Assembly: GCA_026026165.1 (NCBI GenBank)
Contig: JAPEUD010000008.1
Coordinates: forward strand, 1 to 64,000
DNA length: 64,000 nucleotides
Source: Sarea resinae
Lineage: Eukaryota
Reading direction: 5' to 3'
Part shown: positions 13,526 through 15,754 of the stretch, one piece after another
Layout: each line of letters opens with the position of its first letter
How positions within the stretch are numbered: the first letter of the stretch is position 1
Position numbers and translations under genes: made by a program
The notes under the pieces: model-generated
The model's database searches: none
The model's input: the letters and a program-made list of their open reading frames with translations, nothing else
Told to the model about the DNA's origin: nothing

Positions 13526-14151
13526 ATGATTCAACTCAAGGTCTGTAGTCTCGAAGCAACGGACTCGATCCAGAACGGTACTGACCTCAAACCTAGACGA
13601 TGCTGAATTGCATCGACAACTCCGGCGCAGCCGTTGTCGAATGCGCCAAAGTCCTCAAGATGAAGCGGGCCGCTGGCATTGGTTCGTGTTTGCCTTTCTT
13701 GTATCTTTCTCGACAAGCCACTTACAGTGTCTGTAGGTGACCGCATCATCGTCGTCGTCCAGAAGCAGCGATCGTTCGGCCCCGAATCCGGTCCTGGAGG
13801 TTCCGTCTCGACTTCAGCAGCAAACAAAGTCCGAAGAGGAGACATTAGACATGCGGTCGTGGTGCGGACACAGAAGAAATATCAGAGACCGGATGGAAGC
13901 GTTGTCAAATTCGATGACAATGCGTGCGTCCTGATCAACAAGGCCGGTGATCCTATTGGAACGAGATTAAACGGTAAGCAGCCTCGCTCATACACTCTGA
14001 GGGTGTTCCCAGCTACCTGAGGAGAGGACGGAAGATCGGACTTTTACGCTACAGTTTTCAAAGCTAATTGAGATACTCAGGGATTGTCGGAGCTGAGCTG
14101 AGGGACAAGAAGTGGTCCAAGATTTTGTCATTAGCACCAATGCATTTGTAA
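13526..14151 (+). CDS. MRPL38: Mitochondrial ribosomal protein uL14m (yeast Mrpl38 type), 4 exons
   Basis: MIQLK|TMLNCIDNSGAAVVEC, HAVVVRT, RPDGSVVKFDDNACVLINK, GIVGAELRDKKWSKILSLAP. Three GT-AG introns. Confidence 0.93.
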
Positions 14152-14338
14152 ATGTACACTTAGGCGTTCTGATAATTGAATTCATATCTATAACACAATG
14201 TGCCGAGTGGATTTGTACTGCAGAACTCCCACCACCCCTTTCCTTGGCTTCTCCAAACTCCGGCTACCTGGCATTTCTTGCCGCCCCGAAAATACATATA
14301 TGAACGCCGCCCAATGCCTTGAGTATGCATAACCATCG

Positions 14339-15060
14339 CTATTGAAAGATCTTGCCACAGCCAGGACTGCAGCAAACGTAGAAGAGTTTCTGCAGACGCG
14401 AGATGTAAGCTTCACAGCCGAGGAAGACCAAGATGTGGCGGCTCACCATTCCTGTCTCGGCAGATCGCTGTTGAGATTGGAAAAACACCGCTTCAGTCTC
14501 GTGGCAGGCTGGGCACTGCTTGTTCGACCTCGGCAGCTGTTGGGCGCACACATGTCAGCACAGATTCAAGGAAAGTTGCATGCAATGCGAATCTCCCGAT
14601 CTGCTTCAACCACAGCGCAAAGTTTCTTTATCCTCGAGCCCATCGATATAGCGATGCTTCTCGCTGTCGGGCTCGATGACCTCTCCACAAACCACGCACA
14701 CGATCTCCTGACCACAAAGGGTGCAAAACTCAGGTAGACCAACCGTTGGATCGGATCCCACGTCTTGCGTCACTCCTGCGACTTCACCAACCGAGTTCGA
14801 CAAGTCGTTTCGGAAGACACAGGCGGAGGTGGCGGGTTCGCTGAACTGGCATGTCCGACAGGCAAACATGAGGGTGTTGCTCAGGCGATCCTCTTTGGGA
14901 TAAAGCATGTTCGAGCTGGAAGAACAAGTTAGCAACAGTGGCAACCAGAAAACGGGAGGAGAGGAGGCATTTACCATTCGCGGCAGAATCGAAAGGTGAT
15001 CTGTTCGGAAGAAGGCTTGAGCTTCTGTTCGGCTTCTGAGCCCATCGGCGAGGCGGACAT
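14339..15060 (-). CDS. RPB9: RNA polymerase II subunit Rpb9, 4 exons
   Basis: [24 protein letters not shown] (N-terminal Zn ribbon), [45 protein letters not shown] (C-terminal Zn ribbon). Confidence 0.95.
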
Positions 15061-15554
15061 GGTGGTGAAATGAGACGCGGGCCGGGTAGAGTGAGGTAGA
15101 GGGTTTCGATGAGATCGAAGATCGTGGGATACGGTGTGAGACTACCTCGAGGTTTTCGAGGACTGTGAGAACGGTTGTCGGTGTGGATGATAGATGGTGG
15201 GTGATGAGGTCGTGGGTGATGGATGAGGAAAATGATTCACAGGGTCTACTGCTGTACTACAGTAGGTCTCGAGGGTCGGGTGGCAACTGGATGGATGACT
15301 AAGGGCCACCGCCGAATGGCTTACCTAAGCCGAACCCTCAACTCCCTTAGATTACCCCGCGATGGATCCATGAACGTTGTCCCTCCAGGGCTACCGGTTC
15401 CCCTTGCGACCACCAACGCCGTGGTTCACGGCCTCCAAGTATTTACCCTCCAGCTGTTCCTGCGTCAACGTCACAACTTTTGGATCCCTTCTCTTCCCTT
15501 CTACCCACCCTTGCCTTCTTGCGTCCCCACCCCACCACTCACCCACTCACTCAC

Positions 15555-15556
<2 letters not shown>

Positions 15557-15594
<38 letters not shown>
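15557..15594 (+). repeat. (CT)n microsatellite preceded by (CACT)n, upstream of ESS1
   Basis: Directly visible. Confidence 0.9.
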
Positions 15595-15598
<4 letters not shown>

Positions 15599-15754
15599 CC
15601 ACACTCTCTTCCCCTTCTCCACACTCACGCTCAGATTTACCCGTATCTCGCCAACTTGCACGGCATACCCTACAACCCTCCCGTCCTGTCCACTTCACAT
15701 TCCAATTCCAGTCACGGTCACTTCACTGCCAATTCGCAAACCACTATCGTAGAC

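Follow-up and report, generated by a model that had tools for sequence, protein, structure and literature searches.

An intronic reading frame in RPB9 of Sarea resinae predicts a second, conserved C-terminus of Rpb9 in leotiomyceta

RPB9, the gene for the RNA polymerase II (Pol II) subunit Rpb9, was located on the minus strand of the first 64,000 nucleotides (nt) of contig JAPEUD010000008.1 of Sarea resinae (assembly GCA_026026165.1); this whole stretch is referred to here as the window. The gene consists of four exons and three introns (Table 1), and its second intron, when read in frame from exon 2, encodes an alternative C-terminus with four cysteines that is the subject of this study. An N-terminal ribbon of the RPB9/M-15kDa type is present; the PF02150 match given in Table 1 was obtained with exon 2 plus the tail, in which the exon 1 knuckle is absent, and full-length alternative forms matched the same family with E values of 5.4e-12 (protein P0005) and 6.1e-13 (P0219). 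The linker ending in DPT, followed by LPRS in the canonical form, was read directly in the window. Exons 3-4 encode the canonical C-terminal TFIIS-type ribbon (CPAC...CSPGC), with a mean column identity of 87% for exon 3 in an alignment of 25 sequences, and canonical relatives (P0197, P0200, P0213 and P0214) carry PF01096.

In the frame of exon 2, intron 2 can be translated for 45 codons up to a TGA, and the product contains CTLCG-x4-CVVCG, that is, CxxC-x5-CxxC with a glycine after each pair. A preliminary description of this DNA had given the borders of the intron, its 207-nt length and its GTTGGT donor, had set that length against the shorter introns of the region, and had noted the 45-codon read-through with both pairs as CxxCG. 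On re-reading, all of these details proved exact, and intron 2 is about 3.5 times the length of introns 1 (59 nt) and 3 (57 nt).

Table 1. Features of the RPB9 locus in the window (pN/pS, ratio of the proportions of nonsynonymous and synonymous differences; AF2, AlphaFold2; pLDDT, predicted local distance difference test)
Feature	Coordinates	Strand	Description	Evidence
RPB9 exon 1	15060-14975	minus	ATG 15060-15058; 28 residues + TG; first CxxC of the N-terminal zinc ribbon	Sequence; RNA contig joint to exon 2
RPB9 intron 1	14974-14916	minus	59 nt, GTAAAT donor	Sequence; RNA contigs
RPB9 exon 2	14915-14744	minus	Remainder of the N-ribbon and linker, ends ...GSDPT	Sequence; Pfam PF02150 Zn_ribbon_RPB9, E 1.6e-08
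RPB9 intron 2	14743-14537	minus	207 nt; weak GTTGGT donor, CTGAC 14558-14554, CAACAG acceptor	Sequence; RNA contig joint; donor and length comparison across loci
Conserved core of the predicted alternative C-terminus	14743-14684	minus	20 codons, four Cys	Alignments; pN/pS
Variable, mostly acidic end of the predicted alternative tail	14683-14606	minus	25 residues + TGA 14608-14606	Sequence; pN/pS 0.84 in the window's group; AF2 pLDDT ~50
RPB9 exon 3	14536-14447	minus	30 residues; first knuckle and hairpin of the canonical C-ribbon	Sequence; RNA contigs
RPB9 intron 3	14446-14390	minus	57 nt	RNA contig joint 14389 to 14447
RPB9 exon 4	14389-14339	minus	16 residues + stop; second knuckle of the canonical C-ribbon	Sequence

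Orthologous introns were collected by a scan of metagenome contigs, which gave 327 pattern matches, 133 of them confirmed, and the best 80 of the 133 were analyzed as loci. The linker pattern was matched by 76 of the 80; loci L072-L075 have variant linkers and still carry the motif. The 71 complete introns (70 loci and the window) represented 48 distinct introns at 97% identity. Among these, intron 2 measured 83-543 nt with a median of 207, and all but one fell between 159 and 543 nt, in line with the expectation of the preliminary description that orthologous introns should be long; introns 1 and 3 of the same genes had medians of 53.5 and 55 nt. The donor of intron 2 was GTNGGT in 40 of 48 cases and consensus-like in 3, and consensus-like donors were present in 25 of 40 first introns and 26 of 46 third introns.

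The exon 2 frame was open over a median of 0.69 of the 48 distinct second introns, compared with 0.33 and 0.22 in the remaining two (Wilcoxon 3.7e-5 and 4.6e-8, values that overstate independence, as the loci are related), and it often ended just 20-40 nt before the acceptor. Individually, 21 of the 48 introns passed the shuffle test at 0.05.

The same tail was found in predicted proteins. A query composed of exon 2 and the read-through (P0001, 102 residues) matched 590 proteins, and the best 120 of these 590 all carried a read-through tail, with V(G)... and not LPRS after DPT; most of the 120 read VGLPDFCTLCGxEIxCxxCG. Tails of the form DPTVG..C..CG..C..CG, which the preliminary description had mentioned for gene predictions of other Pezizomycotina, do exist. 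Positions C64, C67, G68, C73 and C76 of P0001 were invariant in an alignment of 53 matches, and the first-knuckle Cys and Gly together with the third Cys were invariant in alignments A1-A3.

With two further protein searches that started from metagenome loci, 318 fetched proteins carried the signature D[VI]xxDPT, 303 of them with the read-through and 15 with the canonical junction, proportions that are biased towards tail bearers since the tail was part of the queries. Four Cys in two CxxC pairs are present in the window and in 175 of the 303 read-through proteins (as C..C-x4-7-C..C); a three-Cys version, C..CG-x4-C, was found in 86, the first knuckle only in 9, and no motif in 33. Post-motif tails of at least 10 residues (n = 262) contained on average 27% D+E vs 10% K+R.

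Named tail-bearing species fall in seven classes of leotiomyceta, namely Lecanoromycetes, Eurotiomycetes, Leotiomycetes, Dothideomycetes, Candelariomycetes, Coniocybomycetes and Lichinomycetes. The lineage was looked up for one species per class (one genus each for Coniocybomycetes and Candelariomycetes), and the remaining named genera presumably belong to the classes under which they are given here. Eurotiomycetes with the tail include Aspergillus terreus, A. affinis and Polytolypa; Candelariomycetes, Candelina and Candelaria; Coniocybomycetes, Sclerophora and Chaenotheca; and Lichinomycetes, Phylliscum. Leotiomycetes (Cadophora, Rhynchosporium, Lachnellula, Hymenoscyphus, Botrytis, Sclerotinia and others) read VGLPLCLLCGxVVMCEGR. 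Additionally, loci L070, L076 and L078 and protein P0366 have four-Cys tails and an exon 2 resembling that of the Sordariomycete canonical protein P0213, and the tail is likely present in Sordariomycetes as well.

In Dothideomycetes (Lophium, Vermiconidia, Pseudocercospora fijiensis, Cercospora, Septoria linicola, Macrophomina, Acrodontium and Trichodelitschia) the tail begins with VG and a spacer that varies in length up to about 50 residues, and continues with (I/V)PxFCTMCGQEIxCxxC(G/E)xxTDxGxxLEVxD and an acidic tail. A separate observation in the Dothideomycete proteins P0273-P0299 and in loci L020-L025 is the extra conserved block xxTDxGxxLEVxD after the second knuckle, together with an acidic, variable spacer between VG and the motif.

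Existing annotations contain both forms. Bcrpb9 of Botrytis cinerea B05.10 (112 residues) and SS1G_08937 of Sclerotinia are annotated as the read-through form, and other records of the same or sister species give a canonical form of 128 residues.

Selection on the frame was assessed by pooled Nei-Gojobori pN/pS over 17 codons around the motif. Core values were 0.35 for 24 four-Cys loci (276 pairs) and 0.23 for 17 Leotiomycete loci (136 pairs), below 1 as the preliminary description had anticipated for dN/dS, and exon 2 of the same two sets gave 0.24 and 0.10. When the core bases were read one or two bases out of frame, pN/pS rose to 0.75-2.2. The intronic read-through frame is conserved, and its core is under purifying selection. 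Beyond the core, the tail was constrained in three groups (0.07, 0.17 and 0.26) and intermediate in one (0.52). Since these post-core values depend on lineage, the unit under constraint throughout is VG...CxxCG...C(xxC), with the acidic tail being of importance in some lineages only.

These patterns bear on the idea that it is not a sense peptide but an RNA or DNA element, for instance a regulator of splicing or an antisense gene, that accounts for the conservation. Long plus-strand open frames do run across RPB9 in the window, and weak donors often accompany regulatory sequence, but variation in the core is concentrated at the third position of the sense codons (column entropy 1.50, vs 0.79 and 0.74 at positions 1 and 2), and each core Cys is encoded by both TGT and TGC among loci. 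Within the 51-nt core, stops occur in some loci in all three antisense and both shifted sense frames (5-17 loci for most of these frames; the least affected one has 3 of 17), and the peptide motif persists even though its distance from VG ranges from 0 to about 50 codons. We regard an element of this kind as very improbable.

A chance open reading frame (ORF) or an artefact of gene prediction would find some favor in the length of the window ORF, which alone is not significant (shuffle p = 0.098). Against it stands the pattern C..CG-x(3-6)-C..CG, which has its single occurrence in the six frames of the 64-kb window at the intron-2 site, where block shuffles gave an expectation of 0.005 per window (1 of 200 shuffles). 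The conservation in seven classes and the coding signature in core pN/pS are likewise at odds with chance, an explanation that we consider extremely improbable.

RNA for the window gene came from one public metatranscriptome run, whose assembled contigs were aligned to positions 14200-15200. Contigs near-identical to the window remove all three RPB9 introns at the predicted borders. The joint across intron 1 (14916-14974 skipped) has a shorter side of 172 letters; the intron-3 joint, from 14389 to 14447, shows no mismatch with a shorter side of 20 letters, under the 31-letter rule; and the intron-2 joint, from 14536 to 14744, is exact and free of mismatches, although its shorter side of 21 letters also falls under that rule. 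A canonical DPT-to-LPRS mRNA exists in the window species. The motif is not a constitutive exon, because the RNA contigs join DPT to LPRS and none covers intron 2.

Retained-intron transcripts, for which the preliminary description had proposed to look, were not seen in the RNA contigs of the window species but are inferred in one relative. The ORF of protein P0122, on JGI contigs no longer than 985 nt, is 100% identical in two blocks to genomic locus L048, which lies on an 891-kb contig. Residues 1-26 correspond to L048 1368-1445 and residues 28-113 to L048 1501-1758; the 55 nt between the blocks hold a GT...AG intron 1 that is missing from the ORF, and the ORF continues past DPT into intron 2. 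The simplest reading of these data is that P0122 is an assembled transcript of a Leotiomycete in which intron 1 was spliced and intron 2 was retained.

Two other short JGI contigs, P0206 and P0247, can only be spliced RNAs. P0206 has the canonical DPT-to-LPRS junction with a shifted intron 3 acceptor. In P0247, from a Leotiomycete contig of 1219 nt, splicing starts from a donor within the motif, after ...CLLC, and reaches exon 3 in the wrong frame, so that 180 residues are read; it is probably a mis-spliced or unproductive variant.

Joined exons 1-2 were considered as a general mark of transcripts and dropped, since the genomes of several lineages have lost intron 1; for this reason the joint is informative only where the matching genome has intron 1, as with P0122 and L048. 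Intron 1 is missing and the long intron 2 is kept in L035, L037, L038, L045, L049, L057, L058, L066, L067, L070, L072, L074, L075 and L076, and P0231 and P0127 are further cases of genomic loss. Likewise, proteins of the first protein search with exon 1, exon 2 and the tail were rejected as transcript evidence, as all 21 flagged were NCBI gene models; the pattern that flagged these joins missed NLLYP and NMLYA variants. The Logan and ENA entries of that search are plain ORFs on genomic contigs.

As a side observation on intron 3, the Leotiomycete proteins P0206, P0251, P0253 and P0257, a mix of gene models and one JGI contig ORF, have this intron retained or its acceptor shifted, which alters the last knuckle of the canonical C-ribbon.

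Donor usage also bears on whether the motif might instead be inserted into full-length Rpb9, through an in-frame donor past the second knuckle that would place a zinc module between the linker and the C-ribbon. The NCBI gene model P0159 of Rutstroemia is built in this way, and the JGI transcript contig P0247 uses a donor within the intron, though out of frame. However, P0159 is a prediction, no conserved phase-0 GT follows the motif (the sole candidate in the window being GTCATC), the frame is open and in some lineages constrained far past the motif, and the RNA contigs of the window species use the canonical donor. Such an insertion seems quite improbable.

The nature of the module was addressed by profile searches and structure prediction. 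A tail-only profile run against 1.84 billion representatives matched 56 proteins; RPB9 exon 2 precedes the tail in 52 of them, and the remaining 4 are fragments of tails of this type. As all 56 are linked to RPB9 or are tail fragments, the module exists, among these representatives, only in RPB9. An Atlas feature search with the tail returned only ascomycete RPB9 clusters, with scores of at most 0.82. An origin of the tail by duplication of exon 3 was unsupported, as hhalign of tails against exon 3 gave a probability of 2.3%. AF2 models of the full alternative form P0005 (89 sequences) had pLDDT values of about 90 in the N-ribbon, 55-64 in the linker and 73-74 in the motif, and the window tail alone reached 67-76 over residues 1-20 and about 50 beyond, with the motif at 73-76 across both models. 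These predictions are compatible with a small, ordered knuckle that leads into disordered sequence. A module with all four Cys is predicted to bind one zinc ion.

Several observations weigh against a functional second C-terminus or narrow its scope. On the side of the module, no Pfam family matched the tail above the cut-off (the best was DZR, E 0.002, with 18.7 bits vs 27.3), the tail profile had no matches among PDB sequences at E up to 10, and the five residues between the knuckles are fewer than in classical zinc ribbons. In the window, frame +1 of intron 2 is open for 58 codons vs 45 in frame 0. The post-core tail is near neutral in Leotiomycetes (pN/pS 0.69) and in the window's own group (0.84). 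Conservation of frame and Cys spacing, which the preliminary description had proposed to test, held across lineages as regards the frame and the presence of Cys but not their full number: Leotiomycetes have three Cys, some lichen-fungus contigs keep the first knuckle only, and L035, L058 and L066 retain just the two Cys of CTYCG. The motif is decayed in L079, a relative of the L020 group, and in L077, which has a GTGAGT donor, and it is absent from L080, whose intron 2 has 83 nt and a GTGAGC donor. The last three loci hint that loss of the tail lets the intron revert to the ordinary type, in a sample too small to conclude.

The RNA evidence carries reservations of the same kind. In the contigs of the one RNA run, neither the retained form nor cover of intron 2 was present, and contigs drop rare variants. 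The status of P0122 as a transcript is deduced from its contig size and the matched genome. NCBI proteins with joined exons 1-2 and the tail are gene models that may be ab initio. Finally, a retained mRNA could be a target of nonsense-mediated decay (NMD), because the exon 3-exon 4 junction follows the alternative stop at a distance of about 160 nt.

This last point leads to the possibility that retention of intron 2 is regulated unproductive splicing, in which the mRNA would be a decay target or tune Rpb9 dosage and the peptide would have no function of its own. The weak donor and long intron kept across lineages would suit this explanation, as would a stop that precedes a later exon junction and so could expose the mRNA to NMD, the near-neutral post-motif tail in two groups and the RNA contigs of the window species without a retained form. 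Dosage control, however, needs just a stop codon, and it leaves unexplained the invariant Cys and Gly, the in-frame pN/pS of 0.23-0.35 against shifted frames near or above 1, the frame that stays open over most of introns of 300-540 nt, and the constrained post-core tails (0.07-0.26) of some lineages. We consider unproductive splicing unlikely.

Altogether, it is probable that RPB9 of S. resinae, as in most leotiomyceta, encodes two C-termini, the canonical one and a predicted form made by reading through intron 2. The gene encodes two mutually exclusive C-termini; which one results is decided at a conserved weak donor, and RNA shows the canonical option in use. The alternative C-terminus appears real and conserved, its coding status being well supported by sequence comparison, and it very probably belongs to an actual, so far predicted, second protein.

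In the proposed mechanism, splicing of intron 2 joins DPT to LPRS and gives canonical Rpb9 with its N-ribbon, linker and TFIIS-like C-ribbon. Where the weak GTTGGT donor is left unused, translation would continue from DPT into intron 2 and yield a short form, Rpb9-short, composed of the N-ribbon, the linker, a 20-residue Cys module (VGLPxFCTLCGxEIxCxxCG) and a short, variable, mostly acidic and probably disordered tail, which would terminate ahead of the C-ribbon exons. The efficiency of splicing at the weak donor would determine the balance between the two forms. Rpb9-short may still dock on Pol II through its N-ribbon and linker, which would result in a polymerase, or a free factor, that lacks C-ribbon functions. 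These functions are TFIIS-linked cleavage and read-through, fidelity and contact with TFIIE. Rpb9-short should keep the roles of the N-ribbon and linker and lose those of the C-ribbon, because the first zinc ribbon (Zn1) plus the linker sufficed for one function of yeast Rpb9.

A broader proposal is offered tentatively and with considerable doubt. In most filamentous ascomycetes a single gene might give rise to two kinds of Rpb9, the short one having a minimal zinc knuckle and acidic tail where the canonical one has the TFIIS-like ribbon. This could add a second population of Pol II, or a free factor made of Zn1 and the linker, with altered fidelity, TFIIS response or stress-gene activation, its balance being kept by a regulated weak donor and the arrangement conserved since the leotiomyceta ancestor.

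If the short form is made, a very large group of fungi, including Aspergillus, Botrytis, Cercospora, Pseudocercospora and lichen fungi, would have a built-in way to vary Pol II composition. It would also represent a natural separation-of-function allele, with Zn1 and the linker and without the C-terminal ribbon (Zn2), which straightforward edits of the intron could delete or fix in a model such as Aspergillus nidulans. In databases, RPB9 of these fungi is represented by many read-through entries, such as Bcrpb9, and these would best be treated as one of two isoforms and not as the protein.

The surroundings of RPB9 in the window hold further features. On the plus strand, two stop-free frames of 118 and 134 codons (14323-14737) lie antisense to exons 3-4 and intron 2; they probably reflect sequence composition and are not kept open in relatives. 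An open frame at 13664-14020 (plus strand) matches Ribosomal_L14 (PF00238, E 5e-25), and from this match a gene for a uL14-type ribosomal protein is predicted to be convergent with RPB9. Upstream of RPB9, a CT-rich microsatellite spans 15531-15626, with (CTCT) x 12.5 at 15546-15595 and CCACTCAC repeats.

No paper on an Rpb9 isoform or on conserved retention of an RPB9 intron was found, with subscription journals lying outside the search, and no description of a natural Rpb9 isoform without the C-ribbon was found in the searchable papers. The alternative C-terminus is apparently undescribed, its sequences being present in databases only as unremarked gene models. Rpb9 has been linked with the choice of start sites, with elongation past sites of arrest, with the fidelity of transcription and with repair, partly according to PMC4168980, in which TFIIS-linked elongation and fidelity are general Rpb9 roles. 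That cells might tune fidelity through Rpb9 dosage is an idea raised in bioRxiv 10.1101/026799.

Compared with canonical Rpb9, or POLR2I (N-ribbon PF02150, linker and C-ribbon PF01096), the predicted alternative form would come from the same gene, share exons 1-2 and have the linker ending in DPT, and it would exchange the C-ribbon of about 46 residues encoded by exons 3-4 for a Cys module of 20 residues and a short acidic tail without significant profile similarity to canonical exon 3. The C-ribbons of TFIIS, Rpa12.2 and C11 have two CxxC knuckles, as does the alternative tail, in which the first knuckle, FCxxCG, is similar to the way TFIIS-type ribbons usually begin. Unlike those ribbons, the tail has five residues between the knuckles and hence no beta hairpin with a functional tip.

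Yeast RPB9 is not known to have an intron. Yeast Rpb9 1-52 (Zn1 and the linker) is enough for autophagy and for the activation of ATG1, a role that does not need Zn2, mutation of its cysteines having no effect (PMC9638876). This truncation has the parts of the predicted short form, an N-ribbon and linker without Zn2; it is, however, an artificial construct without the Cys module or the acidic tail and is silent on fidelity or TFIIS-linked roles. Functional intron retention is a common general mechanism in fungi, and the features it has in common with RPB9 are a weak donor, read-through in frame and an intronic stop. What sets the present case apart from general intron retention is that the intronic frame is conserved across seven classes and lies in the gene of a core Pol II subunit.

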